DNA from: a bacterium
GTDB lineage: Bacteria > Patescibacteriota > Minisyncoccia > Phycocordibacterales > JAUSHB01
NCBI GenBank assembly: GCA_030648955.1
Contig: JAUSHB010000010.1
Location: forward strand, 13,556-77,555
DNA length: 64,000 nt
Reading direction: 5' to 3'
How positions within the stretch are numbered: position 1 is the first letter of the stretch; each line of letters starts with the position of its first letter. The notes below the pieces were generated by a model, which was not told where the DNA came from, did no database searches, and saw only the letters and a list, made by a program, of their open reading frames with translations. The position numbers and the translations under genes were made by a program. Shown here one piece after another: positions 468-26,450 of this stretch.

Positions 468-469
468 GC

Positions 470-1638: not shown

Positions 1639-1640
1639 AA

Positions 1641-4238: not shown

Positions 4239-4283
4239 ATACTTTTTGGACTATATTAAAACAGTCAAAATGAGTCTACTACA

Positions 4284-4334
4284 CCCCCAGAATACCAAAA
4301 ATCCCCCGATTTTTCAATGGGTTTGTGGGGATAT
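4284..4334 (-). promoter_or_regulatory. R-repeat copy 1 (promoter/operator-like), 46 nt upstream of the kbl-like start
   Basis: The minus strand reads TTGAAA-17 nt-TATTCT, with the spacer palindrome AAAAATC-GGGG-GATTTTT. It is one of six copies. Confidence 0.5.
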
Positions 4335-4398
4335 TGAGTTTAAGCCCTTGCTTTTTATATTTCAGACCCCACATAATCAATATGTTATAATTAAACCT

Positions 4399-4830
4399 AT
4401 GAAATTAGAAAATATAAAATACTCGACGGATATCAAAGAACTCCAAGGATGTAAATTAGGAATTTTTTTTGAAGGATGGGAAATTAAACCTTCAGATCAA
4501 GTATTTCGGGATTCATTGAAAAATTCATATAAGGTTATTTGTGCCATCGACACAGAAAAAAATATGATCATTGGCTACATAACCGCTATTTCAGATGGCG
4601 TACTAAGTTCTTATATCCCCTTTCTTGAAGTTGATAAGCGCTACCAAAAACAAGGTATAGGTAGTGCTCTATTTAAAAAAATGCTCGAAGAATTAGGTGA
4701 ATTATACATGACCGACCTTGTTTGCGATGAAGAAAAAGCCGGCTTCTATGAGAAAGCCGGCATGATAAGATGGAACGCAATGATTATTCGTCGCTTTAAA
4801 CACCAAGGTGGTGTTCGGCGCAAGGATTAA
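4399..4830 (+). CDS. GNAT family N-acetyltransferase
   Basis: Acetyl-CoA binding motif QKQGIGSALFKKMLEEL. The ORF-track start at 4246 is an artefact of translating R-repeat copy 1; the first plausible ATG is at 4399 (MKLENIKY...). Confidence 0.7.
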   Translation: MKLENIKYSTDIKELQGCKLGIFFEGWEIKPSDQVFRDSLKNSYKVICAIDTEKNMIIGYITAISDGVLSSYIPFLEVDKRYQKQGIGSALFKKMLEELGELYMTDLVCDEEKAGFYEKAGMIRWNAMIIRRFKHQGGVRRKD

Positions 4831-4929
4831 GCAGCTACTTGGAGTGCCTTTTCAGCGTCCTTGAGGGTAATGTCCCCGTTGGCGAGTAGGCGTGCAAAAC
4901 TGAAGATGATGATTGATTCAAGCTGACTC

Positions 4930-5640
4930 TTGAACTCTTCTTCGTGGTTTTTGTGTTTTAGGCAACCTGAATTTGGAAGTCCTGCTTCCAAATTCACTCA
5001 AGTAGTTAAAAGCTTGAGGGACTTTTTTAAAAAATTATTAGTATATGATATGAATACATTTTTACATTCTCAAAATCCAAATATTAAACCGCTTGAATTT
5101 ATTGAGAAAGTTCTTAGTTTTTGTGATACAGGAAATGCTTTAGATCTAGGTGCTGGAACAGGGAGAAATGCAATATTCCTTGCGAAAAAAGGATTTAAGG
5201 TTGTTGCACTTGATTTATCTGGACAATCTGTGGATGAACTTACTCAATACTCTGCGCGTGAAGGTTTGTCATTGAAAACTTTCGTGTATAATCTTGCCAC
5301 AAATACACCTGATTTTTCAAATTACAACATAATTTTATTTACGTTTATACTCCATTATATTTCTAAGGAGAGAGGAGAAGAATTGATTGCTACTGCCCAA
5401 AAACAGGCTAACACGGGGACTATTCACGCGCTGGCTGTTATTACTACGGAAGGAGATTTTTTTGCTAAGGAAACCCAAAAGAAGAATTTTTATCTTGAAC
5501 CGGGGAATCTTGCAAAAAAATATGAGAAAGAGGGGTGGACAGTATTATCGTCGTTTGAAGAAAATCGGGCTATGGCAATAAAGAATGCGGATGGAACTCA
5601 GATGAAAAATTTGGTGTCATTTTTGATTGCAAGAAAATAA
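4930..5640 (+). CDS. SAM-dependent methyltransferase, TehB-like
   Basis: Motif LDLGAGTGRNAIFLAKKGFKVVALDLS. The start may be the internal ATG at 5050. Confidence 0.75.
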   Translation: MNSSSWFLCFRQPEFGSPASKFTQVVKSLRDFFKKLLVYDMNTFLHSQNPNIKPLEFIEKVLSFCDTGNALDLGAGTGRNAIFLAKKGFKVVALDLSGQSVDELTQYSAREGLSLKTFVYNLATNTPDFSNYNIILFTFILHYISKERGEELIATAQKQANTGTIHALAVITTEGDFFAKETQKKNFYLEPGNLAKKYEKEGWTVLSSFEENRAMAIKNADGTQMKNLVSFLIARK

Positions 5641-5649
5641 CAAAGGATA

Positions 5650-5690
5650 AGGAGGTCAGCAAGAGAGGTTTCACCTCCTTACAGCGTTTT
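5650..5690. terminator. hairpin GGAGGT...ACCTCC followed by a T-rich run
   Basis: AGGAGGTCAGCAAGAGAGGTTTCACCTCCTTACAGCGTTTT lies directly after the 4930..5640 stop. It is also the first structure downstream of R-repeat copy 2 on the minus strand. Confidence 0.5.
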
Positions 5691-5717
5691 ACATAAAAAT
5701 TTTAACAAAGAATCTTA

Positions 5718-5768
5718 CCCCCAGAATACCAAAAATCCCCCGATTTTTCAATGGGTTTGTGGGGATAT
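5718..5768 (-). promoter_or_regulatory. R-repeat copy 2, between two convergent genes with no obvious target gene
   Basis: Identical to copy 1 over about 50 nt. Confidence 0.45.
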
Positions 5769-5795
5769 GTTACTTATTTAGAGCTGTGTCTGAAT

Positions 5796-7829
5796 TTAAA
5801 TTTTTAGATCTAAATTTTGAGCAAAAAACGTAAGCAAAAGAGTCTGACTTTCAACAATTTTCTTTATTGGCTTACCTGGACCATGCCCGGTTTCCATTTC
5901 TGTAAAAATCAGCACTGTGTTCTTTTTATTAACGGATTGTAGCATGGCGGTCATTTTTCGTGCATGAAGTGGATCGACACGAGTATCCTTACTTGCTGTT
6001 GTAAAAAGGAAGGAAGGATATTCAACTCCCTCTTTCACGTTGTGGTATGGACTCCACTTTAAAATTCTTTGCAGATCTTCTTTTACTTCGGGGTTACCGT
6101 ATTCATGGACCCAACGAGATGCAATACCAAACAAGGGAAATCTAACCATATCAATTAATGGAACTCGAGAACAAACTGCTTTAAATAATTCTGGTCGCTG
6201 AACGGCAACCGCAGAAACCAATAAACCGCCGTTACTTCCTCCCAAAATACCAAGATGATCTCGGTCGGTATACTTTTCTTGAATAAGATATTCGGCGGCG
6301 GCAATAAAATCATCAAAAGAATTTTGTTTATTTTCTTTCATGCCATCTTTGTGCCATTTTTCACCAAATTCACCGCCACCTCGAATATTCGCAATAACAT
6401 AAATGCCTCCACGCTCCATCCATGACACGAAGCCTCTCATAAACCCTGGTGTGTTGAGGTCTGCAAAACCACCGTACCCATAGAGGATAGTAGGATTAAC
6501 TCCATCAACAGATATATTTTTCTTGTGAAAAATAAAAAGGGGTACTCTAGTTCCGTCTTTGGACTGATACCATTCCTGCTTGGTAACATAATCATTTGGG
6601 TTTATTGGGTTATCTGTTTTTCGGTATACCTCAAACTTATTTTCAATTGGAGAATATCGATATGTTATTTTAGGAAAAGTAAACGAATCAACGCCATAAA
6701 AAAACTCATCTTCTTCAATGTTCCTAGAAATTCCGGCGAGACTCGAATACGGAGGAAGTGGTATTTCGCCGATTTCTTTACCACTATGGTCAAACATTAC
6801 CACCTTTGAACAAGCATCAACAAGATAAGTTACGATTATTTTAGTTTTTGTAGTAGTTTCTGACTGCAAAAGATATTTCCGCTCTGGAATTAATTCTTCC
6901 CAGTCTTCAGTCGGAGTAAATAGATTTATGATAGGAACCGAAAGGATTCTAAAATTATTTGCATTATAATTAGTACCTACAATTACTTTATCTTCTAAAA
7001 ACTTGAGTGAAAATTTCGCAGGCATACCAACTACAAAAGGTTTTGTTTGCTTAGTATCCCTATCGTAAATATAAATATCGTTTTCAGTCCATGTTACCGC
7101 TGATGAAATTGCCAAATATCGTCCATCCATTGAAATAGTAATACCGAGCATATCATCTTTTGGACGATCTTTACCGAAAATAAGTTCATCGTTATTTGGA
7201 TTATCACCAATTTTATGAAAATAGATTTTTGTATGAAGATGTTCCTCGTTTTTAGGAACAGTACCAGGTTCGGGGTTCTTCGTATAGAAAAAACCGGAGT
7301 CATCAGGAAGCCAACTTATTTGGGAATGTCTGCACCGAGGAATTTGTTCTGATAGATTTATACCAGTATCCACTCCCTTTATGTACATTATTGCCATCTC
7401 ATCACCTCCCTGCGAAAGACCATATGCGAGATATTTACCAGTTCGAGATACCGACCAAAAAGCGATATTGATCGTATTGTCATCCCTCATCCCATTAGGA
7501 TCTACAAGTTTAACGGGGTTGCCATTTATTCCAGTTCTCACATAAAGTGCGGATTGGTCCTCGTCCGGTTGGCGCTCGCTATAAAAATACTTTCCCCTAA
7601 CAGGAATAGGATTTGAAAAATTAACAACCTTAAAATTCTTAACGAGTTCGTTAGAGAATATTTCAAAATTTTCATTTCGTAGGAAGGAATCAGTATAGGA
7701 ATTTTGAGATTCAACCCATTCCTTTGTTTCAGAACTTTTTGCATCTTCAAGCCAACGGTATGGATCAGATATTGAAATGCCATTAATAGAATCAATGATG
7801 TTATCTTTTTTAGTTTGTGGAATTTTCAT
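5796..7829 (-). CDS. prolyl oligopeptidase (S9A family serine peptidase)
   Basis: 677 aa with a beta-propeller N-terminal half and a C-terminal alpha/beta hydrolase. Catalytic serine motif GGSNGGLLV, plus YGYGGF. Confidence 0.85.
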   Translation of the reverse strand: MKIPQTKKDNIIDSINGISISDPYRWLEDAKSSETKEWVESQNSYTDSFLRNENFEIFSNELVKNFKVVNFSNPIPVRGKYFYSERQPDEDQSALYVRTGINGNPVKLVDPNGMRDDNTINIAFWSVSRTGKYLAYGLSQGGDEMAIMYIKGVDTGINLSEQIPRCRHSQISWLPDDSGFFYTKNPEPGTVPKNEEHLHTKIYFHKIGDNPNNDELIFGKDRPKDDMLGITISMDGRYLAISSAVTWTENDIYIYDRDTKQTKPFVVGMPAKFSLKFLEDKVIVGTNYNANNFRILSVPIINLFTPTEDWEELIPERKYLLQSETTTKTKIIVTYLVDACSKVVMFDHSGKEIGEIPLPPYSSLAGISRNIEEDEFFYGVDSFTFPKITYRYSPIENKFEVYRKTDNPINPNDYVTKQEWYQSKDGTRVPLFIFHKKNISVDGVNPTILYGYGGFADLNTPGFMRGFVSWMERGGIYVIANIRGGGEFGEKWHKDGMKENKQNSFDDFIAAAEYLIQEKYTDRDHLGILGGSNGGLLVSAVAVQRPELFKAVCSRVPLIDMVRFPLFGIASRWVHEYGNPEVKEDLQRILKWSPYHNVKEGVEYPSFLFTTASKDTRVDPLHARKMTAMLQSVNKKNTVLIFTEMETGHGPGKPIKKIVESQTLLLTFFAQNLDLKI

Positions 7830-7832
7830 TGT

Positions 7833-8048
7833 TTAGCGCAGGTCCTTAAGCGAAGAAAGCTTCTTCCCTTTTCCGTGTTCAAATTGCTCTCGGTCTCTTT
7901 TTAGAGACGCAGTAAAATTTCGTGCTTTTTGCTCACGCAAAAGATGGCGAAAAAATTCACTCGTGGAAGAAAACCCCCCTATCCTCACCTCTTTTCGGAT
8001 TTCTTTGGCGGTTATTTCGGGAACAGAAATATTAATGATGGTACGCAT
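7833..8048 (-). CDS. ribbon-helix-helix (CopG/ParD-like) DNA-binding protein
   Basis: 71 aa. ...TSEFFRHLLREQKA resembles RHH antitoxin/repressor sequences. Its stop lies 3 nt from the peptidase start. Confidence 0.5.
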   Translation of the reverse strand: MRTIINISVPEITAKEIRKEVRIGGFSSTSEFFRHLLREQKARNFTASLKRDREQFEHGKGKKLSSLKDLR

Positions 8049-8062
8049 GATTGTGTATTATT

Positions 8063-8083
8063 TTGTAATAATTTGTATTACAA
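8063..8083. promoter_or_regulatory. perfect 8-bp inverted repeat TTGTAATA-N5-TATTACAA overlapping the RHH gene start region
   Basis: It lies 15-35 nt upstream of the 8048 ATG and overlaps TATATT/TATTAT -10-like hexamers. This is a typical RHH autoregulation operator arrangement. Confidence 0.45.
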
Positions 8084-8147
8084 TATAATACTACCTTCGT
8101 AAGCAGATACTGTCAAGATGTATTATCTCTATACGTTCCAAATACCA

Positions 8148-8184
8148 AAAATTCCCCGGTTTTTCAATGACTTTGTGGGGATAT
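8148..8184 (-). promoter_or_regulatory. R-repeat copy 3 (variant), about 90 nt upstream of the RHH start
   Basis: ccaaataccaaaaattccccggtttttcaatgactttgtggggatat. Confidence 0.45.
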
Positions 8185-8288
8185 TGGAGTAGCTACATAT
8201 ACTGAAATTTTACTTGACAGTAATAGTCCGCATACTATATACTTAAAGCACTAAACGTGAACGGCATCCTATATGGGTGCCGTTCTTG

Positions 8289-8912
8289 TTATCTCCTTTT
8301 TAATCGTTCACGAAGATATTCAAAATCCCTAAAATTACTCCCGGCGAATTGACGAATTTCTTTTGCAGTTCTCGGCCCCCTCGCTAGAACAATAACCTCC
8401 TTTTTTATTTCTCTAAGATACTTAAGCACGGGCAAGAAATCACCATCACCAGAAAGTACGACGATGCGATCAAATTTATCTCGTTCCTTCATAAGATAAA
8501 ATGCCATATCTACATCACAGTTCGCTTTTCGTTTTGTTGTTCCATCTTCCTGGTCATACAACTTCACTGGCTTAAGGAATAATTGATACCCGAACTGTTC
8601 AAGTCTCAGGTAAAATCTTGTTCTTTGTAGGTGTCTACCGATCAAAAGAATGTCAGCCTCATTAAGTTCTTTTCCGCTGTTCTGCAATAATCCAAGAAGA
8701 TGTTTTTCGAGGGATTTTAGCGGAACGGTTTCATTTGTTTGATAATTATATTTAAAATTATGAACTTCAACACCTCCGAAGTAGAGTGTTTTCTTGACAT
8801 CATATTTTTCTTGTAGATACTCTAGTAGTTTTTCGTAATCTATCTTCCACCCTAAACTTTTTTCTCCACCATAAAAGAGATTTGACGCATCAATAAAAGC
8901 AAAAGTTTTCAT
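8289..8912 (-). CDS. NYN-domain (LabA-like, PIN-fold) protein
   Basis: FIDASNLFYGG ... VVLSGDGDFLPVLKYL matches the NYN / LabA family. Confidence 0.75.
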   Translation of the reverse strand: MKTFAFIDASNLFYGGEKSLGWKIDYEKLLEYLQEKYDVKKTLYFGGVEVHNFKYNYQTNETVPLKSLEKHLLGLLQNSGKELNEADILLIGRHLQRTRFYLRLEQFGYQLFLKPVKLYDQEDGTTKRKANCDVDMAFYLMKERDKFDRIVVLSGDGDFLPVLKYLREIKKEVIVLARGPRTAKEIRQFAGSNFRDFEYLRERLKRR

Positions 8913-8937
8913 AGCGAAAAATTATATACCCCCAAAA

Positions 8938-8987
8938 TACCAAAAATCCCCCGATTTTTCAATGCTTCCGTGGGGATAGGTAATTAA
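8938..8987 (-). promoter_or_regulatory. R-repeat copy 4, directly upstream of the NYN gene
   Basis: A TATATAAT element lies about 8 nt before the ATG, so the transcript is probably leaderless or has a very short leader. Confidence 0.5.
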
Positions 8988-9001
8988 GCACGTTAAATCG
9001 T

Positions 9002-9670
9002 CTAATCAATATCGAGTAGCGCTTGTTCGGTTTTTTGATATAGTGCAGTTAATTGTTTTTTGTTGTACATATGGGGGTATTTTGTATTAACGATTTTCAC
9101 GTTTTTTGCCAAAATATCATTTTTGAATAATTCCACCCATACTGCCTTATCATCACCTTTGGAAAAATAAATAAATAATTTATATCCTCGTATATTTTTT
9201 ACCATTTTTCTGATATCCAATTTAGCGAGGTCTCGCGCTAGGGTTTTACTGATATGAAATTTATTTAATTTATATAAATATTTTCCGGCGCTTTTGAGTG
9301 TCCTGTGCCCGTCTTTTGGTATCCATGGCGATGGCGACCAAAAGACAATTTTTTCGATACTTTTAGGGAGTCTTGATAGCATGAGAATGCTCGACCCAAA
9401 ACTATGGCCGATTATATACACGTGCTTATATTGTTTTCTGCGTGCATAATGCGCAAGAAAATGATTAACTCTTTCTATAATTCTCTTTATGTCTTGATGC
9501 AACTTCGTTTTGCCATCATAAAGCGTCAACGAAACAATGTCGCATTTATACTTAATTCTACTTAAGGGGGTAATAATTTCACTCAACGCATTCGTCATCA
9601 ACCCGGGCAAGATAATAATCAGTCGTTGATTATTGTTTGTAGTTTTCAAATAATATTCCTGATTTTTCAT
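9002..9670 (-). CDS. alpha/beta hydrolase
   Basis: Nucleophile elbow GHSFGS; 222 aa. Confidence 0.65.
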   Translation of the reverse strand: MKNQEYYLKTTNNNQRLIIILPGLMTNALSEIITPLSRIKYKCDIVSLTLYDGKTKLHQDIKRIIERVNHFLAHYARRKQYKHVYIIGHSFGSSILMLSRLPKSIEKIVFWSPSPWIPKDGHRTLKSAGKYLYKLNKFHISKTLARDLAKLDIRKMVKNIRGYKLFIYFSKGDDKAVWVELFKNDILAKNVKIVNTKYPHMYNKKQLTALYQKTEQALLDID

Positions 9671-9699
9671 TAATTCTATTTACTTAAAAATATCAAAAA

Positions 9700-9728
9700 T
9701 TAAGGGCTGTAATTATTACAGCCCTTAA
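9700..9728. terminator. perfect palindrome TTAAGGGCTGTAAT-T-ATTACAGCCCTTAA
   Basis: 14-bp stem located between the 9738 stop and the 9670 start. Confidence 0.6.
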
Positions 9729-9737
9729 TCAGAAGGT

Positions 9738-9992
9738 TCACTTTAGATTGAAATCGCCGTTTTTTACTCCCTTGATGAAAAGATCCCATTCCTTGGGAGA
9801 AAAAAGTGCTGTGATCTTTTGGGAATCGTTTGTATTACGCACCACGATAACATCATGCCGCTGTGCGACACCAACACAGGTTTTAATCCCCCAACAGATA
9901 ACGGTACCCTGGGGAGCAACGAAATCTGAATCCTTCAGGCCTTTTGCTGCACGCTGTAATTTGTCCATGAAACGATCACGAGTTTTCGCCAT
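9738..9992 (-). CDS. DUF397-like small protein
   Basis: KTCVGVAQRHDVIVVRNTNDSQKITALFSPKEWDLFIKGVKNGDF matches the DUF397 pattern C-V-x-V-A ... V-R-[DN]-[ST]-xD ... F-[ST]-x-x-EW-x-F-[IL]-x-G-[VA]-K-x-G-[ED]-F. Confidence 0.55.
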   Translation of the reverse strand: MAKTRDRFMDKLQRAAKGLKDSDFVAPQGTVICWGIKTCVGVAQRHDVIVVRNTNDSQKITALFSPKEWDLFIKGVKNGDFNLK

Positions 9993-10026
9993 AATGAATC
10001 TCCTTAAATTTTCAAGATCAAATGCT

Positions 10027-10066
10027 ACTAACGACCGTTAATAGCTCTGTTGTTAGAATACATCAC
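10027..10066 (-). promoter_or_regulatory. conserved 5' element M, copy 1 (shared with 13475..13515)
   Basis: ACTAACGAccGTTAATAGCTCTGT-N5-AGAATACAT lies 34 nt upstream of the 9992 ATG. The second copy has the same geometry upstream of 13445. Confidence 0.5.
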
Positions 10067-10190
10067 CGTTTTAATTCGGTCAAGCAAAATTGCAAATTAC
10101 GAAACTAGAGGGAGATTTTGATCTCCATGAACGATAGCGGATAAAAAGATCCGCAATACTAGAAACTGCAAGCAAAATATGTTGCATGTA

Positions 10191-10240
10191 CACCCTAAAA
10201 ATACCAAAAATCCACTCGTTTTTCAACCCCGTGGTAGTCC
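10191..10240 (-). promoter_or_regulatory. R-repeat copy 5 (degenerate)
   Basis: ataccaaaaatccactcgtttttcaaccccgtggtagtcc. Confidence 0.35.
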
Positions 10241-10259
10241 ACACTGGGCAGATTATTAC

Positions 10260-10514
10260 TTACGCATACAACGTATGAGAACCGACATCCATAAAATATA
10301 CTTTTTTCTTGTGTAGTTTTATAATAATTCGATAAGCAAAATTCACAGAAAAAGCATGGTATTTTTTTAATTTTCCGTGCAATTTATGGAGTTTTATTTC
10401 CCCCTCGTTCTTTTTATTTTTAAACAACGCAACAGTGCGATAACAATCATCTTGGACCGCGGGAGATAATTTTCGAAAGGAACGCAAGAATCTGGCGGTA
10501 TAAAGATATTCCAT
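10260..10514 (-). CDS. type II toxin, RelE/ParE superfamily (YafQ-like)
   Basis: LHKLHGKLKKYHAFSVNFAYRIIIKLHKKKVYFMDVGSHTLY fits the RelE/YafQ C-terminal signature. It overlaps the upstream antitoxin by its start and stop codons. Confidence 0.7.
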   Translation of the reverse strand: MEYLYTARFLRSFRKLSPAVQDDCYRTVALFKNKKNEGEIKLHKLHGKLKKYHAFSVNFAYRIIIKLHKKKVYFMDVGSHTLYA

Positions 10515-10516
10515 TA

Positions 10517-10738
10517 TTACTTACTTCGTCCCGCTAATTTTTTGAGATCGCCCTTATAGACACGTCCTGTTTTAATATCGTTTTCCGCCTCCTGTATCCG
10601 CAAAAGTATCCGTTCTTCGCGAAGACGCTCGAGAGCAAACCGCACGAGATGCGCCTTGCTCTCACTTGTTCCCTGTGCAAGCTCCTCCTCAATAAAATTC
10701 TCGAGGTCTTTATTGATGGGTATGGTAATGGTAGTCAT
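10517..10738 (-). CDS. type II antitoxin, RHH/ParD-like
   Basis: 73 aa, ...SKAHLVRFALERLREE..., sitting immediately upstream of the toxin. Confidence 0.65.
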   Translation of the reverse strand: MTTITIPINKDLENFIEEELAQGTSESKAHLVRFALERLREERILLRIQEAENDIKTGRVYKGDLKKLAGRSK

Positions 10739-10792
10739 ATACTATATCTTAGTACTATATTATAGTAATTGCAAGTCAATAAAAGTGGTTCT

Positions 10793-10849
10793 CTGGAGAT
10801 ACCAAAAATCCCCAGATTTTTCAATGCTTCCGCGGGATACCGCCTATCA
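10793..10849 (-). promoter_or_regulatory. R-repeat copy 6, about 55 nt upstream of the antitoxin start
   Basis: ctggagataccaaaaatccccagatttttcaatgcttccgcgggatacc. Confidence 0.45.
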
Positions 10850-10863
10850 AGTTTCCCACAGGT

Positions 10864-12492
10864 GTGGTATTTTACTCTGTAATGGCCAAAGTAATACTCT
10901 CGGCAAAAGATACATCGTTTGAGCTCCAACATAAAACTCTTTTTAAAGAGCTTAATCTGACGATAAAAGAGGGCGATCGGATCGGATTGGTTGGGAAAAA
11001 CGGCAGTGGAAAAAGCACGCTTTTAAAATTGCTTGCGGGACAAATCGAAACAACAAGAGGCGTGATAGAAAACAAGGGTTCCTCGTACTATCTCCCCCAG
11101 TTAGACTTCTCGCTTTTTGGAAGCACCGACAAAATAGAAGAATATGTTTTTCGCCAAGGAGTAAATTGGTCCGCCCTTAATGCAAAGCTTCGCAAATGGT
11201 TTAAAGAAAACGAAATCAAGCCTGACCAAAAACTTCAAACACTCAGCGGAGGTGAGTTGATGAAACTCAATCTCGCGATCGCCGAAGCACACAATCCCAA
11301 TCTCTTGCTCCTTGATGAGCCAACAAACCACCTCGATGCAGAAGGTATTGATATTTTAAAGAAATTTCTCACAACATTCCCGGGGGCATTCATTATTGTT
11401 TCTCACGATCCATTCTTTCTTAATCTTGTGGTAAATCATATTTGGGAACTTGAGGAAGGAGCTGTCGCCGAGTATGGAGGGAATTATACACATTATGCCG
11501 ACCAGAAGCAGTTTAAGAAAGATGCGCGAGAACGGGATTATACGGCAACCAAGAAAAAATTAAAGAAGGTCAAAAAATCCATTGAAGCAGAACAAAAACG
11601 CGCAGACCGCTCAAAGCGCGTGGGAAGAAAAGAAGTGTTCGCAAACAACATGCCGCCGGTACTGAAAGGATTTTACGCAAACCAAGCATCCGGTACCGCG
11701 GGCAAGCAGGGAAAAAAACTAAGAAAAATCATGGCGCAACGAGATGAGAAAGCCAGTACATTAAAAAAGGAGAAACAACGTCCGCTGCGGTTTGTGATCG
11801 ACCACGACACTTCCGGCGCGCGAAAAACGTTAATTGCCATTAATGACGGAGTGCTTGGGGTTGCAGAAAAAACTCTTATCGAAAATATCGACCTTCGCAT
11901 TGTTTATGGCGACCGCCTTGTGTTAGTCGGCAAAAATGGCAGTGGAAAAAGTACGCTTGCAAAATCTATTGCAGGAGAAGATGCTGTGGTGGAACTCGGA
12001 GGGTACGTCAAACGCTCCCCCGACGCAGGTGTGGTGTATGTGGACCAGAAATACCAAATCATCGCCCCCAACCTTACGCTTATCGAGAATGTGGAAAAAT
12101 ATAATCCGAAACTTACTCATGAAGAAGTGCGGAGACAACTTGGTCGTTTTCTTTTCTATAAAGAAGAAGACGCGCGCAAGAAGGCGGGAGTCTTGAGTGG
12201 AGGCGAGGCGGCACGTCTTGTGTTTGCGATGGTCACGGCGGGATCAGTCGATCTTCTGGTGCTTGATGAACCAACCAACAACCTTGATATTGAAACACTT
12301 GATATTATCGCGGATGCTTTGAAAGATTTCGCGGGCGCATTGGTGATAATCTCTCACAACATACATTTTCTTAAACGTATCGGTATAGACACCGCGCTTA
12401 TCATCGACAAAAAGAAACTCAAAACCATGCGCTCGTCCCCCGCCGAACCAGAAGCGTTTTATAACGAGATGGTTAGTAGCATGAGTTCGTAA
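10864..12492 (+). CDS. ABC-F family ATPase (two tandem ABC domains, no TMD)
   Basis: Two Walker A motifs (GKNGSGKST twice), two LSGGE signature motifs, and an inter-domain linker rich in K/R/E. Confidence 0.85.
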   Translation: MVFYSVMAKVILSAKDTSFELQHKTLFKELNLTIKEGDRIGLVGKNGSGKSTLLKLLAGQIETTRGVIENKGSSYYLPQLDFSLFGSTDKIEEYVFRQGVNWSALNAKLRKWFKENEIKPDQKLQTLSGGELMKLNLAIAEAHNPNLLLLDEPTNHLDAEGIDILKKFLTTFPGAFIIVSHDPFFLNLVVNHIWELEEGAVAEYGGNYTHYADQKQFKKDARERDYTATKKKLKKVKKSIEAEQKRADRSKRVGRKEVFANNMPPVLKGFYANQASGTAGKQGKKLRKIMAQRDEKASTLKKEKQRPLRFVIDHDTSGARKTLIAINDGVLGVAEKTLIENIDLRIVYGDRLVLVGKNGSGKSTLAKSIAGEDAVVELGGYVKRSPDAGVVYVDQKYQIIAPNLTLIENVEKYNPKLTHEEVRRQLGRFLFYKEEDARKKAGVLSGGEAARLVFAMVTAGSVDLLVLDEPTNNLDIETLDIIADALKDFAGALVIISHNIHFLKRIGIDTALIIDKKKLKTMRSSPAEPEAFYNEMVSSMSS

Positions 12493-12512
12493 AAACATAT
12501 AATATTAAATGT

Positions 12513-13031
12513 ATGTCACCCAAGTTAGTAAAACCAAATACAACGTACCAAAAAAGCTATACTGAAGCTCTTTGTGAATTTCTTACTGAGTCTCAATCTC
12601 CAGAACATATTGAATCAGAAATTAGAAATGTACTAGATTCTATAAACCACAAAAATGATGCTGCGCAAGGAAAAAATTTAGTTAGTGGTGAAGTGACTCG
12701 AAGTGAATTTTGGCTCATTGATAAAGAAAAATACATCGGAATGATACAGATTAGACATAAACCAAGTGGTCGAATTCCTGAAGCAGCGAGCCATATTTAT
12801 TATGAAATACGTCCATTAGAGCGTGGAAAAGGTTATGGTGTTGAGATTCTTCGACAAGGACTTATTGAGGCAAAAGGGCTCGGGTTGCAAGAGATAATTA
12901 TTACCTGTGATAAGAATAATATTCCGTCTCAAAAAATTATTCAAACAAGCGGTGGTCAATTTATCGCGGAGATACCTATGCCTAACAAAGAAATCCCCCT
13001 TCTTAAATATAAAATTTCTTTGAGTGAATGA
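12513..13031 (+). CDS. GNAT family acetyltransferase
   Basis: ERGKGYGVEILRQGL matches the R-x-x-G-x-G/A acetyl-CoA motif. Confidence 0.6.
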   Translation: MSPKLVKPNTTYQKSYTEALCEFLTESQSPEHIESEIRNVLDSINHKNDAAQGKNLVSGEVTRSEFWLIDKEKYIGMIQIRHKPSGRIPEAASHIYYEIRPLERGKGYGVEILRQGLIEAKGLGLQEIIITCDKNNIPSQKIIQTSGGQFIAEIPMPNKEIPLLKYKISLSE

Positions 13032-13039
13032 GGAGGAGA

Positions 13040-13072
13040 AAACCGCCCCGAAAATAAATTCGGGGCGGTTAA
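13040..13072. terminator. bidirectional terminator ACCGCCCCG-N10-CGGGGCGGT
   Basis: GC-rich 9-bp stem flanked by A/T runs, between convergent genes. Confidence 0.7.
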
Positions 13073-13091
13073 AAGGGACTATCGAATGTAG

Positions 13092-13445
13092 TTAGCCACG
13101 AGAATGGTGTTCGTGACCATTAGGGGCTTGAATGCAAATACAAGCCATTTGGGGTTTCCCCGTATCGAGCCGCCAGCTTGTGATTCTGGCATGCGTAGCT
13201 TCGATTTCCGCAACCTTAACTGGCCGCATACGCAGTGTACGGTCGTCTGGGTTATTGGTTTCAAGCATCACTTCATCATCACCAACAGAAAAATGCTGGT
13301 GGAGCAAGTTCACCCCGAAACGGTCAAGGCACCTGTGCTTCTTCAGTACTTCCGCAACATCCGCAAGACATTTCTCGTCACTTACAGAGAAGAGAGGAAC
13401 CTGACTAAGGTCAGGGAGTGGATTGGTTTGTGAAATGTTCTGCAT
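13092..13445 (-). CDS. hypothetical small protein
   Basis: 117 aa, with a GGAGG-type RBS 9 nt upstream and conserved element M further upstream. The overlapping plus-strand ORF 13104..13433 is judged spurious. Confidence 0.4.
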   Translation of the reverse strand: MQNISQTNPLPDLSQVPLFSVSDEKCLADVAEVLKKHRCLDRFGVNLLHQHFSVGDDEVMLETNNPDDRTLRMRPVKVAEIEATHARITSWRLDTGKPQMACICIQAPNGHEHHSRG

Positions 13446-13474
13446 TTAAGTACCCTCCTGGGGTTCAAATGGCC

Positions 13475-13515
13475 ACTAACGAATGTTAATAGCTCTGTAA
13501 GGCAGAATACATTCT
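13475..13515 (-). promoter_or_regulatory. conserved 5' element M, copy 2
   Basis: ACTAACGAatGTTAATAGCTCTGT-N5-AGAATACAT lies 30 nt upstream of the 13445 ATG. Confidence 0.5.
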
Positions 13516-13593
13516 AGATAAAATATGTCAATAGTGGCAAGTGGTAATAAATTCTTAGTATTTTGAAGGCTTTGTGGAAATAGAAAAAATAAT

Positions 13594-15391
13594 CTACCGT
13601 AACCCAATATGAAGCTCATAAATGTGGCGATAGGAACCATTAGGAATTTTCATAAGTTCATCGTGACTGCCTTGCTCGATAATATTACCACCGGCCAACA
13701 CTAAAATTCTGTTTGCCTTGCGTACCGTACTTAAGCGGTGAGCAATAATAAATGTGGTACGTCCTTTCATTAACCGCTCAAGAGATTCAGTAATACTCCT
13801 TTCGGTCTTGGGATCAAGCGCGCTTGTCGGCTCATCGAGAATAAGAATTTTGGGATTGCGTAAAATGGCGCGAGCGATCGCAATACGCTGCTTTTGTCCT
13901 ACAGAGAGCTTCACCCCCCGCTCACCTACCAACTGTTCGTACTTCTTCCGAAAACCTTCAATGAACTCGCTCGCATATGCTTCTTTAGCGGCACTATAAA
14001 TCTCCTCATCAGATGCGCCTTGATTCCCATGACGAATATTCATTTTTATTGTGTCATTGAAGAGCACTACTTCCTGTGGCACCACGGCAATATACTTTCG
14101 CAAAAATTCCAAATCAAGATCACTGGTTTTATGCCCATCAACCAACACATTGCCACTTTTAGGAAAATAATAACCGGAAATAAGGTCGACGAGCGTGCTT
14201 TTACCCGCACCGGATTCTCCAACGAGTGCAACTACTTCCCCCGCAGTTACAGAAAAATTCACATTTTTGAGCACAGAATCCCCGCGTTTATAGGAAAATA
14301 CAACATTCGAAAACTCGATATTCCCCTGCAGTGGAGATAAGTTCTTCTTTTTTCCAAACCGATATCGCTCTATAGGCACCGCGAGTATTTTTTCCGCACG
14401 TTCAATCGCAATAATGCCGTTTTGGATGATCTGCCAATTGTGTCCCAGTGTTACAAATGTGTCCCAGTGTTACAAATGGACCAAAGACCATAGCCGCATA
14501 TCCATTGAGCGCGATGAGTCCTCCAATCGTAAGTTCCCCTGCTTGAATAAAATGTACCGACAAAATAAAAATAGTAAGCTGTGTCGCCGCAATCACCATA
14601 CGCTGATAAAATCCAATGCCACTCCAAATTTTCTCGACCTTATACCAAAATGTTGCCGCTTTGTTGATAAATTTTCTCCTTACTTTTTCTGATTCATATT
14701 CTTCCCCTGTTGATTGCTTGATCGTTTGCGTATTGGCAAATGCGTCATATGCATCCCCATATGCTTCATTCCACGCCTTGTTCCCCTTTCGTTGATATTT
14801 CACAATCGGAGGAACAATGATTGCAAGAAGTATCACATAGACTATGATTCCAACAACAATAACAGAAGCGAGAAGTGGATGAATTAAAAAAGCAATAGTA
14901 ACGCCGACTGCGACACTAAGAAATTGCGGGGCGAGATTGATCACTACCTGTTCAATAATATTCGAGAGCGCATTCCCTGCTCTCATAAAACGATCCCAAA
15001 TAATTCCCGTTTTATATTCCTTATGAAACGAGAGCGGGAGTCTTAAAAGGTGGGCGGTTGCACGTGCGGGATATTCCGCATGGATAAATGTTCCTATCCG
15101 TCGACGTTCCTTATCGTTGATCCAATCAGAAATATTTGCGACCAGTTGTACAATTACCCAAAATGCAATAAATCCCGTCCACTGGGGCATAACAACAGGA
15201 TAGTTAAACATAAGTGATGGATTGAGTAAGGAATCTAAAAACTTTCCAACAATAAAAGGCACTGATGCATTTGCAAACGCAGAAAATACCCCCAAAAGAG
15301 AAAGAAAGGTAATTTCTTTTTTATATTCCCCGAGATACTGGAAAAGTATTTTCCAGCCTTCTGTAAGATTAAGTGTTGCTTTTTTCTGCAT
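13594..15391 (-). pseudogene. ABC exporter (fused TMD-NBD, MsbA/ABCB-like) interrupted by a 19-bp tandem duplication
   Basis: 14402..15391 encodes a 6-TM ABC exporter membrane domain. 13594..14379 encodes the NBD (Walker A GESGAGKST, signature LSVGQKQR, Walker B ILILDEPTSALD) and begins at GTG. Deleting one copy of GTGTCCCAGTGTTACAAAT (14439-14457 or 14458-14476) joins them in frame as ...FGPFVTLGHNWQIIQNGIIAIERAEKILAVPIERYRF... Confidence 0.75.
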
Positions 15392-15467
15392 ATCCCTCTA
15401 TTTATAGCATTTCAAGGAACTTGCCACCAATCAAAAGTAATAAAAGGTGGGGAGCATGAATCCTCTA

Positions 15468-16196
15468 TTATCGTGCAACAGGTACTTTGTTAAAATTCGA
15501 GATACGTACATGTTCGCGAGCGGATGAATTGTGTAATTTTGCAACTTGCAACATTATTAATTGTGCCGCGTGTTTATAGTCCTCAATGGTTACTGTTGCA
15601 ACATCAGGAAAAATATCTTTGGGATACAGTGGTTTCCCATATTTAATACTGATTTTCCTTCTGCGCAACACAAAATCAATAGGACTCATTTTGAAATGAC
15701 CGTTCATTGCGACGGGAACAATAGGCACTCCTGTTATATGAGAAAGAAATGCAACACCTCCTTTCCCATTTCCCACTTCCCCGTTCTCTGTTTTCCCTCC
15801 TTCGGGAAACATAAGAATGCTTTTGCCCGCATTAAGGATATTGATGTGTTCTTGAAGCGAGAGTGTGTAATCTTTCTTTCCTGTATGTGCAGGATACGCT
15901 CCCCACAATTTAAACCAAAATCCACCATAAATATATTTACTGAAACCGTCTTTTTCGTAAAATTCCCGCTCGCGAGCAACATAAAATATCGGCGTTATGG
16001 GAGAGAAGGGATTAAGACTCGCAGGCACCAAAATGGGATCAAGCTCACTTCCGTGATTAGCCGCAAAAATTACTCCGTGGGAAAGCCCCTTAAGATTTTC
16101 CTTCCCAAAAACTTTGAAGCGTGCAAAAAAACCAAGCACTAGCCATGTCGGAATCCAAACGAGTGTCTGTAATATGAATGGTGAAAAATACCTCAT
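15468..16196 (-). CDS. plsC: 1-acyl-sn-glycerol-3-phosphate acyltransferase (LPLAT/PlsC family)
   Basis: HX4D motif AANHGSELD, the FPEGG motif, and an N-terminal TM segment. Confidence 0.75.
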   Translation of the reverse strand: MRYFSPFILQTLVWIPTWLVLGFFARFKVFGKENLKGLSHGVIFAANHGSELDPILVPASLNPFSPITPIFYVAREREFYEKDGFSKYIYGGFWFKLWGAYPAHTGKKDYTLSLQEHINILNAGKSILMFPEGGKTENGEVGNGKGGVAFLSHITGVPIVPVAMNGHFKMSPIDFVLRRRKISIKYGKPLYPKDIFPDVATVTIEDYKHAAQLIMLQVAKLHNSSAREHVRISNFNKVPVAR

Positions 16197-16201
16197 TGTT
16201 A

Positions 16202-16723
16202 TTATTTTCGTTCAATAAAAAACACTAGCCCCAAAGAACCTGCTATCCAAAAAAATAACGCCATAGGCGCTATGAATAACTTATCAATACTGGGAGAAAA
16301 ATTATATATAAGTACTTCCCCGTGAAGTAACTGATAATAATACGCAAGAATGAGCCCTGATGAGGCAAGTCCGAGGGATATAGATTGGAAAAACTTCATT
16401 GTCCCCGATGGATAGTCGCCGTGGATTATGCTTCTTAAAATCACATGTACTATTAAAAAAAATATGAAGAACGAAATGACATTGACCAAAAATGCGCTAT
16501 GGGGAAAAAGCGATGCGATAATTTTTTCCCGAAAAGAAAAAGCGACATACATCGAATGCGCGCCAATGAGTGCGATTAAAAATGAAATAGCGCTCCGCTT
16601 CCCCGCATAAAACGCAAACGCGGATAGTGAAACGATGATTACTAAAATGGCAATGGTATCGAGTGAAAAGCTCGCTAGGGGACTGAGGACATTTGCTAAT
16701 ATCTGCTTGCTTTCCATTGGCAT
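16202..16723 (-). CDS. integral membrane protein (hypothetical)
   Basis: 173 aa and hydrophobic throughout. Confidence 0.45.
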   Translation of the reverse strand: MPMESKQILANVLSPLASFSLDTIAILVIIVSLSAFAFYAGKRSAISFLIALIGAHSMYVAFSFREKIIASLFPHSAFLVNVISFFIFFLIVHVILRSIIHGDYPSGTMKFFQSISLGLASSGLILAYYYQLLHGEVLIYNFSPSIDKLFIAPMALFFWIAGSLGLVFFIERK

Positions 16724-17886: not shown

Positions 17887-19821
17887 CTATTTTTGGGGCG
17901 CTTCTCCGCTATCCCCCTCTTTGAAATCCGCGTCGCGGACATTTCCGTCTTGCCCTGAACTTGTCGAGGGGTCGCCACCTTTTTTATCATCTTTTTTATC
18001 AGAGGATGTAGTACTGGCTTGCGCTTTTGCCATCGCTTCACCAATCTTTTGCATTTCAAGCGAAAGTTCTTCAGTCGCTTTCTTGATGACTGTTGAGTCA
18101 TTGCCGTCCTTAACGCCTTTGAGTGCCGTAACCTTTGCTTCAACAGCTGATTTTACTGGAGCAGGCACCTTGTCGCCTGCGTCGCGAAGTGATTTTTCCG
18201 CAGTATAGATGGTCTGCTCGGCAATGTTGCGCGCATCGACAGAATCCTTTTTCTGACGGTCCGTTTCTGCATTTGCTTCCGCCTCTTTACGCATACGTTC
18301 AATATCTTGTTCTGAAAGTCCCGAACGCGCCTCAATGCGAATTGATTGTTCTTTGCCGGAAGTTTTCTCGCGCGCTTTCACATTGAGAATGCCGTTTGCG
18401 TCAATATCAAAGGTCACTTCGACTTGTGGCATACCGCGAGGTGACGGCGGAACTCCGTCGAGAATGAAGCGACCAAGACTCTTGTTATCTGCCGCCATAG
18501 CGCGCTCTCCTTGCACGATATGAATCTCCACCGATGTCTGATTATCAGCGGCAGTTGAAAACACTTGAGATTTTGATGCTGGAATTGTGGTATTGCGTTC
18601 AATTAATTTTGTCGCGACTCCGCCGAGTGTTTCGATGCCAAGCGAAAGCGGAATAACATCAAGAAGCAAAACGTCTTTCACATCACCCTGCAAAATTCCC
18701 GCCTGAAGCGCGGCACCAAGAGCAACAACTTCGTCAGGGTTGATCGAGCGATTCGGCTCTTTTCCAAAAAGCTTTTTCACCGCATCGATAATGGCAGGCA
18801 TTCTCGTCTGACCTCCCACTAAGATCACTTCTTGAATTTCCCCTATTTTAAATGGTGATGCGCCGATCGCTTTTTTCGTGATCTCAATTGAACGATCAAT
18901 GTATTCGCGTGCAAGCTCTTCAAGAGTTGCGCGGGAAAACTTCAGAAGCAAGTGTTTTGGACCAGAAGCGTCGGAGGTAATGAATGGAATATTGATTTCT
19001 GCTTCAGTTGTTGTTGAGAGTTCATGCTTCGACTTTTCTGCCGCTTCCTTGAGCCTCTGAAGCGCTAAAACATCTTTGGTCACATCAATGCCACTTTCTT
19101 TTTTGTATTCATCGGCAATCCAGCGAATGATTTTTTGATCAATGTCTTCCCCGCCCATGTGCACATCGCCATCGGTTGACTTCACTTCGATGACATCATC
19201 GGCAACTTCAAGCACGGAAACGTCAAACGTACCACCACCGAAGTCATAGACAACGATTTTTTCATCTTTCTTTTTATTAAAACCATATGCAAGCGCCGCC
19301 GCGGTTGGTTCATTGATAATGCGCTTTACGTCAAAACCAGCTATCTTTCCGGCATCTTTGGTTGCCTGTCGCTGACTGTCATTAAAGTACGCGGGAACGG
19401 TAATCACTGCTTCAGTAATTTTTTCTCCAAGTTTTGCTTCTGCGTCGACTTTCAGTTTTTGAAGCACCATCGCTGAAATCTCTTCGGGGCGGTACCATTT
19501 CCCACCCATATCAACCTTAACCCCGTCATTATCGGCGCGTTCTATCGTAAATGAAACATTTTTTTTATCGCGAATTACCCCCTCATCATCAAAACGATGA
19601 CCAATCAAACGCTTGATACCAAAAAGTGTGTTCTTTGGATTGGTCACTGCCTGTCGCTTAGCTAAAAGACCGACGAGACGTTCCCCTGCTTTTGATTGAG
19701 CGATCACCGAGGGTGTAGTGCGTACCCCTTCGGCATTCTCAATAATCTTCGGCTCTCCGCCTTCCATAACCGCCATTGCTGAGTTTGTAGTTCCCAAATC
19801 TATACCTATTATTTTTGCCAT
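17887..19821 (-). CDS. dnaK: chaperone DnaK (Hsp70)
   Basis: [18 protein letters not shown] and full-length Hsp70 homology. Confidence 0.95.
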
Positions 19822-19864
19822 AATTTTATTTTAAAATGATATTAATTAATGTTAAGTTTATGAT

Positions 19865-26428: not shown

Positions 26429-26450
26429 GGTTAAACCAATATTAAAGTTA

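Follow-up and report, generated by a model that had tools for sequence, protein, structure and literature searches.

Why do two small genes with unrelated products share the same stretch of upstream sequence? The question arose in a window of 64,000 nt (64 kb), the whole stretch of DNA that was analysed, which derives from an uncultured, probably ultra-small bacterium (Minisyncoccota/CPR). On the minus strand of the window, ACAGAGCTATTAAC-NN-TCGTTAGT occurs twice, at 10027-10050 and at 13475-13498. The first copy (E1) precedes a DUF397-like gene and the second copy (E2) precedes a gene for a 117-aa protein. The features of E1 and its surroundings are:

10111-10157, minus strand: GCGGAU-CUUUUU-AUCCGC and GGAGAU-CAAA-AUCUCC, a pair of small hairpins that separate the -35 hexamer of E1 from the D1 repeat upstream
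10078-10083, minus strand: predicted -35 hexamer TTGACC (TTGACC-17-TATTCT, 9/12 consensus positions)
10055-10063, minus strand: conserved block ATGTATTCT, holding the predicted -10 hexamer TATTCT (10055-10060)
10046-10050, minus strand: conserved ACAGA before hairpin P1
10024-10045, minus strand: hairpin P1, GCUAUUAAC-GGUC-GUUAGUAGC, with a 4-nt loop and a stem of 9 bp, one of them G.U; ~-10.6 kcal/mol
10018-10024, minus strand: CAUUUGA, the conserved 3′ block with which the shared module ends; in RNAfold its UUUG pairs with the upstream CAGA and extends P1
10000-10005, minus strand: Shine-Dalgarno sequence AAGGAG of the DUF397-like gene, not common to E2
9738-9992, minus strand: DUF397-like gene, 84 aa
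9002-9670: alpha/beta-hydrolase-like gene after the DUF397-like gene

Those of E2 are:

13526-13531, minus strand: predicted -35 hexamer TTGACA (TTGACA-16-TATTCT, 10/12 consensus positions)
13504-13512, minus strand: conserved block ATGTATTCT, holding the predicted -10 hexamer TATTCT (13504-13509)
13494-13498, minus strand: conserved ACAGA before hairpin P1
13472-13493, minus strand: hairpin P1, GCUAUUAAC-AUUC-GUUAGUGGC, with a stem of 9 bp, two of them G.U; ~-9.8 kcal/mol
13443-13471, minus strand: predicted hairpin P2, in E2 only, joining CAUUUGA and ACCC to GGGU (within the Shine-Dalgarno sequence) and to UUAAAUG (start codon)
13092-13445, minus strand: gene for the 117-aa protein, from an uncharacterised His/Cys-rich family; a GNAT gene (12513-13031) is convergent with it

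Two copies upstream of unrelated genes

An earlier note had reported two conserved elements, and both were found at the positions it gave. A motif scan of the window with ACAGAGCTATTAACNNTCGTTAGT matched 10027-10050 and 13475-13498 on the minus strand with 0 mismatches, and no third site appeared in the window even when up to 3 mismatches were allowed; 100 shuffles gave 0 matches, so that 0 are expected by chance. The local alignment of E1 and E2 covered 48 columns, 40 of them identical (83%), with two 1-nt indels. The shared stretch was sharply bounded by ATGTATTCT at one end and CATTTGA at the other, with unrelated flanks. Exact blocks of 9 nt (ATGTATTCT), 14 nt, 8 nt and 7 nt (CATTTGA) were found; the 14- and 8-nt blocks had been sized correctly before, but the first had been given as 8 nt and the 7-nt block lies just past the 3′ end that was then assigned to the element. 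Each copy is followed by a ribosome-binding site, as had been noted (AAGGAG at 10000-10005 and GGAGGG at 13453-13458). Spacing up to the start codon had been called identical, but is only approximately so, with 34 nt from TCGTTAGT to the ATG at 9992 and 29 nt to the ATG at 13445.

The 84-aa protein matched DUF397 in Pfam (6e-6, over the gathering score), and the 117-aa protein had no Pfam match. BLASTP between the two gave E=0.48, which bears out that the proteins are unrelated and that the conservation sits in non-coding regulatory sequence and not in the proteins. The genes upstream of the two units, an ABC ATPase and a RelE-like toxin, are also non-homologous. E1 and E2 differ in the loop of the hairpin (2/4 nt), in the spacer between the -10 hexamer and ACAGA (4/5 positions) and at a single position of the stem (A-U to G.U). 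This sole stem difference, which lies outside the blocks, is a wobble that keeps the pairing, and the 38 block positions are unchanged. With the variable positions saturated and the blocks intact, a recent neutral duplication is unlikely.

Exact and IUPAC motif scans of genome, viral and metagenome contig collections gave nothing, and neither did blastn with the E2 region against phage and plasmid collections. A covariance model of the module (R1) was run on the window without filters and on 38 loci under default filters. It recovered no more than the known copies and one in an orthologous leader (L008, see below); the next-best match, with 15.6 bits and E=0.23, was a terminator-like hairpin at 51811-51863. 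A block-wise regular-expression search returned no partial copies. The wider regulon that the earlier note envisaged did not emerge, as there were two copies within the 64-kb window, the part of the genome at hand, and none in the public collections searched. Because only two copies are known, we regard this as a modest local regulatory feature and not as a new system. A REP-type repeat, of which there are many copies per genome, was rejected on the same count.

Predicted promoter and leader hairpin

Both copies match a sigma-70-type promoter, by consensus only, with a -35 hexamer near TTGACA, a -10 hexamer near TATAAT that has A at position 2 and T at position 6, and a spacer (17 nt in E1, 16 nt in E2) inside the usual 16-18 nt. 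From such a promoter, transcription would begin about 7 nt past the -10. Across the region there were 11 promoter-like sites compared to 9.0 ± 3.4 in shuffles, which is no excess, and a consensus match alone is thus weak evidence. E1 and E2 have neither the -35 region nor the spacer in common. The distance from TTGAC to ACAGAG is 27 nt in E1, in E2 and in L008, a locus with a 71%-identical orthologue of the 117-aa gene, and the leader of L008 retains the promoter layout (TTGACG-17-CAAAAT). The -10 element had previously been assigned to TATTAAC, but the promoter scan gave TTGACN-16/17-TATTCT, and TATTAAC belongs to the 5′ arm of a hairpin. TATTAAC lacks an acceptable -35 at 16-18 nt, L008 has CTGTCAGC at that position, and transcripts starting there would miss the 5′ arm of the hairpin that shows compensation. 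A promoter and a 5′-UTR element had been offered as alternatives, and the module combines both.

The hairpin, P1, has the consensus GCUAUUAAC-NNNN-GUUAGURGC with 9 bp, 3 of them G-C, and a 4-nt loop, and is situated a few bases (+3 to +6) past the predicted transcription start. P1 folded at -10.6 kcal/mol (z-score -4.8) in E1, at -9.8 kcal/mol (z-score -4.7) in E2 and at -10.7 kcal/mol (z-score -2.9) in L008. When these three sequences were aligned, 96% of the cells were paired and 3/9 pairs carried double changes (two from A-U to G-C, one from U-A to C-G), compared to 11-70% paired and 0 double changes in slid controls; the three double compensatory changes set L008 apart within the same promoter-hairpin layout. 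The addition of a hairpin from L003, a locus with a 64% orthologue of the 117-aa gene where the hairpin has a different context (upstream of the promoter and with a U-tract), gave 97% paired and 4/9 pairs with double changes, and 1/500 shuffles was equally good. Compensatory changes in homologues, which mark a conserved RNA hairpin, are thus present, and with only 3-4 sequences they give moderate support. Rfam had no match for the whole window at the gathering threshold or for the two regions at E<=5.

Stem-loops at the 5′ end of the mRNA act as stabilisers in the E. coli ompA 5′ UTR and the B. subtilis aprE leader. Such hairpins lie no more than about 5 nt from the 5′ end and prolong the half-life of the mRNA. 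P1 resembles these as a stable hairpin predicted a few nucleotides from the transcript 5′ end (+3 to +6 from the predicted start, a position that fits), upstream of the Shine-Dalgarno sequence and with compensatory changes. It differs in that the stem sequence itself is constant between copies in one genome, a constraint that a pure stabiliser would not impose.

The constancy of the stem, and not just of its pairing, could also be that of a DNA operator. P1 would then be an imperfect 9-4-9 inverted repeat, GCTATTAAC-N4-GTTAGTRGC over +4 to +25, at which a dimeric repressor shuts both promoters in a two-operon mini-regulon. As in known repressor operators, the repeat has conserved arms and a variable centre in both copies and lies directly downstream of the -10 at two promoters, in the classical position of a repressor site. 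The orthologue in the other genome has a different palindrome, as expected with a co-evolving sequence-specific partner. In the window copies the mismatches in the palindrome form G.U pairs on the sense strand but not on the antisense strand, and the sense strand folds better than the antisense strand (-10.6/-6.4 and -9.8/-3.1 kcal/mol); in L008 the antisense strand pairs equally well or better (-14.5 vs -10.7), so the strand asymmetry is mixed and to that extent agrees with an operator. In contrast, three symmetric transition-type changes in both arms, together with G.U intermediates, are a signature of RNA pairing and not of half-site conservation, and the conserved blocks reach past the palindrome to ACAGA and CAUUUGA. 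No cognate regulator was found, as Pfam analysis of most large ORFs at window positions 1-43000 turned up only two RHH antitoxin-type proteins. Binding by the DUF397-like protein, which had been put forward for testing, appears unlikely by analogy, because for BldB, the DUF397-family member that has been studied, neither ChIP-seq nor SPR detected binding to DNA (PMC10294661). We consider a DNA operator possible but unlikely.

P1 might instead be, or derive from, an intrinsic terminator or attenuator that stops read-through from the ABC ATPase gene or the RelE/RHH operon, or that ends the new transcript early. In its standard form an intrinsic terminator has a G+C-rich stem with a U-tract directly behind it. 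The closely similar L003 hairpin, AGCCCCUAAC-AUU-GUUAGGGGCU (folded region at -21.8 kcal/mol), precedes a UUUUU stretch and has a terminator-like setting after a possible 33-aa ORF and upstream of the promoter of the 117-aa gene, and a consensus scan flagged the E1 hairpin (tail AUUUGAUCUU) as terminator-like. However, E2 (tail CAUUUGAACC), with just 3 U among the 10 nt that follow the stem, was not flagged, L008 has no U-tract and the stems are AU-rich. A terminator downstream of a good promoter, as in the window and L008, would also abort its own transcript at about +30, and we find this explanation very improbable.

The leader of the 117-aa gene

In E2 the sequence after P1 is predicted to form P2, which hides the Shine-Dalgarno sequence and the AUG, and an equal architecture was predicted for the L008 orthologue. 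Leader hairpins that sequester the Shine-Dalgarno sequence are known as RNA-thermometer-like elements or translational operators. The predicted pairing with GGAGGG and AUG in E2 and L008 is similar, but it occurs in one of the two window copies only, lacks FourU or ROSE sequence features and has no Rfam match. E2 and L008 share the Shine-Dalgarno/start sequence GGAGGGUAYUUAAAUG. Because this sequence and the predicted sequestering hairpin are found in E2 and L008 and are absent from E1, E2 would be the native leader; E1 retains CAUUUGA although its pairing partner, the Shine-Dalgarno/AUG region of the 117-aa gene, is missing there.

On this sequence comparison, the hairpin seems to be ancestral to the 117-aa gene. 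The leaders of four further orthologues (L009, L006, L010 and L039) have different or only weak hairpins. The DUF397-like protein had only one close relative in a set of 5.8 billion proteins, and the leader of the DUF397 gene in L003 is unrelated. In a second sample (L007), E1 is 100% identical while its flanks carry SNPs. The ABC exporter, DUF397, hydrolase-like, 117-aa and GNAT families are also neighbours in a second genome (L002/L003), as would fit if the two units were functionally linked. The gene order there (L003) is ABC-DUF397-hydrolase-117aa-GNAT, compared to ABC-117aa-GNAT-...-DUF397-hydrolase in the window.

Origin and possible role of the module

We lean, by a little more than an even judgement, towards a lineage-specific promoter with a 5′-leader RNA hairpin that was propagated to a second gene. 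Each copy would be a compact transcription-start module, with a sigma-70-type promoter (-35 TTGACN, a spacer of 16-17 nt, -10 TATTCT) followed by the first ~35 nt of the mRNA, in which P1, with its 9-bp stem and 4-nt loop, begins ~3-6 nt past the predicted start and is flanked by ACAGA and CAUUUGA. The module would be native to the 117-aa gene, and the 5′ part of the leader alone, 48 nt from the -10 through CAUUUGA, would also have come to stand before the unrelated DUF397-like gene. The two transcription units would consequently share promoter strength and 5′-terminal RNA structure. We infer that P1 acts at the RNA level, where it could shield transcripts from 5′-end-dependent decay and/or offer a binding site for a trans-acting factor common to both; translational masking by P2 would be added to this in the leader of the 117-aa gene. 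The module may co-regulate both genes, which, because two copies are known, is read from their shared sequence.

Reuse of this kind has a precedent in putative mobile promoters (PMPs), which are conserved upstream sequences common to non-homologous genes in a genome, with a smallest reported family size of two members (Matus-Garcia, Nijveen & van Passel 2012, PMC3488235). The module resembles a PMP in that it contains a promoter, lies no more than 100 nt before two CDSs that are not homologous, has non-homologous CDSs also upstream and comprises two members, and a larger family of the same kind (D1) adjoins it. It differs in that the alignment of 48 columns at 83% identity is 2 nt short of the PMP definition (>=50 nt, >=80% identity), and in that what the copies share is for the most part transcribed leader with a structured hairpin and not upstream promoter DNA.

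The sharing could also have no function beyond the promoter, with E1 a retained by-product of rearrangements in which a patch of the 117-aa leader was copied before the DUF397 gene. The module order differs between L003 and the window, E1 is located in a low-GC, repeat-bounded accessory stretch with duplicated flanks around inserted genes (D1 at 4283/5717, D2 at 1396/2580), CAUUUGA was kept in E1 without its Shine-Dalgarno/AUG partner, and promoter reuse before non-homologous genes is widespread (PMC3488235). However, spacer and loop positions diverged while the 38 block positions stayed intact, which looks like selection on both copies, and the identity of E1 in L007 despite flanking SNPs points in the same direction. 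We judge this to be quite unlikely.

As direct repeats with a palindromic core around a 3.4-kb segment of accessory-type cargo (10067-13474, with RelE/RHH, ABC-F, GNAT and the 117-aa gene), the copies might be recombination or mobile-element sites. This is hardly credible, since no recombinase or transposase was among the genes scanned at window positions 1-16700, other genomes keep the orthologous hairpin together with the 117-aa gene, and the other contigs (L001 and L007) show no alternative arrangement. An integrated element or attachment site was rejected on the same two grounds, with no recombinase nearby and the hairpin accompanying the 117-aa gene elsewhere. From reading the sequence, an integron attC site was rejected as well, as TATTAAC and GTTAGTR do not fit the R'' RYYYAAC and R' GTTRRRY cores and the hairpin has 22 nt compared to ~55-140 nt.

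A bolder proposal, which we regard as decidedly doubtful, is that P1, ACAGA and CAUUUGA form a sequence-specific cis-regulatory RNA operator for a co-evolving putative trans-acting protein or sRNA. It would switch between an extended P1 (CAGA-UUUG, translation on) and the hairpin that masks the Shine-Dalgarno sequence and AUG (off), and so coordinate the DUF397/hydrolase and 117-aa/GNAT units beside the ABC exporter. A co-evolving partner would account for a stem that does not vary inside one genome but shows compensation from genome to genome. If true, this would be among the first defined post-transcriptional regulons in Minisyncoccota/CPR bacteria.

Very little is known of promoters, leaders and gene regulation in CPR/Patescibacteria, which do not grow in pure culture. 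The locus offers a concrete example of a sigma-70-like promoter with a -10 of TATTCT and a leader hairpin kept by compensatory evolution. It also illustrates the reuse of a promoter and leader before an unrelated gene, next to D1 promoter-like modules that bound accessory-gene units, and is of value as an entry point for metatranscriptome 5′-end mapping.

Module sharing is common in this region, where the D1 family of upstream modules has 6 copies and genes inserted nearby carry duplicated D1 or D2 flanks. The earlier note also saw two 6-bp hairpins beyond the first copy. Both are there, at 10111-10126 and 10140-10157, and each takes up the predicted fold; they resemble terminators or insulators and lie outside the shared module.

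Extent, predicted promoter and copy number of the shared module

The 84-aa DUF397-like gene (9738..9992) and the 117-aa gene of a His/Cys-rich uncharacterised family (13092..13445) were each preceded by a minus-strand module, E1 and E2, respectively. Read from the sequence, the two leaders were as follows.

E1 leader, minus strand: TTGACC-GAATTAAAACGGTGATG-TATTCT-AACA-ACAGAGCTATTAAC-GG-TCGTTAGT-AG-CATTTGA-...AAGGAG-N7-ATG(9992)
E2 leader, minus strand: TTGACA-TATTTTATCTAGAATG-TATTCT-GCCTT-ACAGAGCTATTAAC-AT-TCGTTAGT-GGC-CATTTGA-...GGAGGG-N7-ATG(13445)

When the window was scanned with a 24-nt core pattern and up to three mismatches, only 10027-10050(-) and 13475-13498(-) matched, and shuffled sequence gave no matches. 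A local alignment of E1 and E2, with sharp limits at ATGTATTCT and CATTTGA, showed identity in 40 of 48 columns with two single-base indels, and outside these columns, the -35/-10 spacer included, the leaders were unrelated. The differences lay in the first two loop bases of the hairpin P1, in the 4-5 nt separating the -10 from ACAGA, and at one stem position where A-U became G.U. The conserved blocks in the earlier note were thus real, with two matching copies and one block more at the 3′ end than first described, but the distance to the ATG, claimed to be identical, was only similar (34 nt in E1, 29 nt in E2). The 84-aa protein exceeded the gathering score for DUF397 in Pfam, the 117-aa protein matched no Pfam family, and BLASTP confirmed that the two are unrelated. 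The general idea of a regulatory element common to both genes was right.

A promoter consensus scan identified TTGACA-16-TATTCT in E2 (10/12 consensus positions) and TTGACC-17-TATTCT in E1 (9/12). Since TTGACN-16/17-TATTCT was located exactly at both copies, the conserved ATGTATTCT block holds the predicted -10 hexamer. TATTAAC, previously proposed as the -10, was rejected, as it belongs to the 5′ arm of P1.

A covariance model of the module, R1, was built from E1, E2 and the leader in L008, a fetched contig with a relative of the 117-aa gene. With filters off, R1 found two copies only in the whole window (58 and 54 bits); the next match, at 15.6 bits (E=0.23), was an unrelated terminator-like hairpin. 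Block-wise pattern searches found no additional copies, and among 38 fetched loci R1 matched only L001, L007 and L008. The regulon implied earlier gained no support from the 64 kb and the loci searched, and two copies 3.4 kb apart with none elsewhere in the window suggest a local phenomenon.

Hairpin P1 and the leaders of orthologous genes

P1, the leader hairpin common to both modules, has the form GCUAUUAAC-NNNN-GUUAGURGC (written GAGCUAUUAAC-N4-GUUAGURGC for scanning), with nine pairs and a 4-nt loop. Its folding energy was -10.6 kcal/mol in E1 and -9.8 kcal/mol in E2, with z about -4.8 compared to shuffles. If transcription starts about 7 nt past the predicted -10, P1 would begin 3-6 nt from the mRNA 5′ end. 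The antisense folds were much weaker (-6.4 kcal/mol for E1 and -3.1 kcal/mol for E2) because each mismatch of the palindrome, as DNA, becomes a G.U pair in the sense-strand RNA.

Searches of genome, viral and metagenome contig collections gave no match to the motif, it was absent from phage and plasmid records, and no Rfam family matched the module even at E<=5. Further motif copies were confined to this organism: the Logan contig L001, which belongs to the same genome, contained both E1 and E2, and L007, from a strain whose DUF397 protein is 98% identical, had an unchanged E1 despite differing nearby bases. We then compared the contigs of a handful of close relatives of the 117-aa protein. 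The L008 leader (71% protein identity) aligned with E2 as TTGACG-17-CAAAAT-7-GAGCUGUCAGC-GGGU-GCUGACAAC, with the promoter-then-hairpin layout and the SD/start sequence GGAGGGUAUUUAAAUG in common. Its hairpin differed from that in the window by three pairs in which both bases had changed (two from A-U to G-C, one from U-A to C-G). Across E1, E2 and L008, 96% of cells paired, compared to 11-70% and no double changes in controls with a slid 3′ partner.

In L003 and L017 (64% identity), a very similar hairpin, AGCCCCUAAC-AUU-GUUAGGGGCU followed by ...AUUUGAA, was located upstream of the orthologous gene, after a possible 33-aa ORF and before the gene's promoter. Adding the L003 hairpin gave 97% pairing with four double-change pairs, and 1/500 shuffles was as good. 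This hairpin has a U-tract, as would be expected if P1 were a terminator or attenuator; E2 and L008 are without one, and we regard that reading as very improbable. The possible ORF (L003:9715-9816, MEVGQDFRKEVLIERIEKSDTWRVFKKDGFVSP) carries a promoter, TTGAAA-16-TATTAT, situated nearly at the ATG, and it ends a short way before the 117-aa gene with a stop codon that falls within the P1-like terminator hairpin; it had no counterpart in the window. Leaders of the orthologues in L009, L006/L012, L010, L039 and L041 held other hairpins or only weak ones, and the DUF397 gene in L003 had an unrelated leader. The comparison of orthologous leaders argues that P1 has long accompanied the 117-aa gene in one clade, and that E1 reproduces this leader in its 5′ part only, transplanted in front of a different gene with an SD of its own.

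RNAfold predicted that CAUUUGA-ACCC in E2 and GUUUAAA-AUCCUU in L008, both just 3′ of P1, pair with the SD and start codon, whereas E1 is without such a partner. For E1, the prediction instead joined UUUG of the conserved CAUUUGA to CAGA, a conserved sequence upstream, thereby extending P1. The UUUG-CAGA pairing is possible in E2 as well, where, speculatively, the choice between P1 extension and the SD/AUG hairpin would constitute a simple on/off switch.

We consider it slightly more probable than its negation that P1 acts at the RNA level, as a 5′-proximal stem-loop that would be either protective or factor-bound, combined in the native 117-aa leader with SD masking. This reading was favoured because transitions in the stem compensate each other, G.U intermediates occur on the sense strand, and sense-strand stability hardly varies among the three leaders. 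The main rival, a DNA operator for a repressor, would account for the stem sequence, and not pairing alone, being identical in both copies of one genome. Against it stand the lack of a candidate regulator among the genes scanned and the finding that BldB, the DUF397-family protein that has been studied, does not bind DNA (PMC10294661); we judge an operator unlikely. The module is a lineage-specific case of known kinds, in which promoter reuse is combined with a structured 5′ leader.

Genomic setting and the D1 repeat

The window is chromosomal, encoding ribosomal proteins, RpoA, AlaRS and DnaK/DnaJ/GrpE. Among named relatives of the 117-aa protein, the nearest came from a Minisyncoccota MAG, which suggests that the source organism is probably a CPR/Patescibacteria bacterium. 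Positions 1-10800 had a lower G+C content (0.34-0.38 vs 0.40-0.46) and accessory-type genes (GNAT, two methyltransferases, NYN, RelE/RHH, hydrolase, DUF397). In this stretch, small accessory-gene units were separated by D1, a 52-nt intergenic repeat in six same-strand copies.

4283-4334, minus-strand orientation, D1 copy
5717-5768, minus-strand orientation, D1 copy
8133-8184, minus-strand orientation, D1 copy
8928-8979, minus-strand orientation, D1 copy
10192-10243, minus-strand orientation, D1 copy
10790-10841, minus-strand orientation, D1 copy

On the minus strand D1 reads ATATCCCCAC..CATTGAAAAATCGGGGGATTTTTGGTATTCTGGGGGT, with an internal palindrome, AAAAATC/GATTTTT. Its invariant columns, TTGAAAAA and ATTT-TGGTAT, spell TTGAAA-17-TATTCT after TGG, an extended -10 promoter. 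Two copies, 100% identical, flanked an inverted GNAT+TehB pair. D1 also occurred at L008:1292-1322, and the short-read contigs L007 and L008 have both their ends within it, which marks D1 as a multi-copy repeat in these genomes. D1 could represent either a promoter module that has been propagated or a small element of mobile or recombination type. That the E1 and E2 copies are themselves recombination sites found no support and is scarcely credible.

E1 lies within the D1 array and E2 just outside it; taken together, the array and the two modules indicate that unrelated genes in this part of the genome habitually share promoter-like modules. Such sharing matches the 'putative mobile promoters' described by Matus-Garcia et al. 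(PMC3488235), although the E1/E2 module is two columns under the 50-nt criterion used there. In L002 and L003, the ABC exporter, DUF397, hydrolase-like, 117-aa and GNAT families were also neighbours, in an order different from the window. Module shuffling has thus occurred at these boundaries, and the E1- and E2-driven units may be functionally linked. A neutral leftover of rearrangement would agree with this history but not with saturated variable positions beside intact blocks, and we find it rather improbable.

Other features nearby

Upstream of E1, the hairpin GCGGAU-CUUUUU-AUCCGC (10140-10157) differed by two bases at L007:71-88. These changes lengthen the stem and add one G.U pair on the minus-strand RNA (UAGUGGAUC...GAUCCGCUA), as would fit a terminator or insulator hairpin acting at the RNA level after the RelE/RHH operon. 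A 156-nt direct repeat (1396-1551 and 2580-2735, 99% identical) flanks a methyltransferase gene (1641-2585) on the plus strand, opposite to its neighbours, and resembles a further insertion whose flank was duplicated. Within the repeat lie a terminator palindrome, AAAGGGGACTACGTTTGTAGTCCCCTTT, and the 3′ ends, identical to each other, of two small ORFs on the minus strand (about 1447-1638 and 2631-2897), whose C-termini (VVVTDDFGNTIAMSKDQFRVLVKGSKEGKLDI) are faintly like that of DUF397 (pairwise E=0.02, no Pfam hit).

The ABC exporter adjoining E2 was split into a 329-aa membrane ORF and a 261-aa ATPase ORF, 22 nt apart, likewise in L001, whereas L002/L003 and L039 encode single 563-594-aa proteins; either a pseudogene created by a frameshift or a gene that is truly split would explain this. 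AT-rich repeated elements of the AAAATCAAAGTTTAAAAATCAAAG and TTTACATTTTGATATTTACATTTT types directly precede several genes on the minus strand (dnaK, MgtC-family and others) and may form a further family of shared promoters or UP elements.

13594-14379 and 14402-15391, minus strand, ORFs of the split ABC exporter
About 19817-19876, 26438-26563, 37597-37733, 57176-57319 and 60915-61107, direct and inverted arrangements, AT-rich elements

Finally, the gene for a 1309-aa NosD/beta-helix protein (21048-24977) contained imperfect 69-nt tandem coding repeats at 23535-24265.
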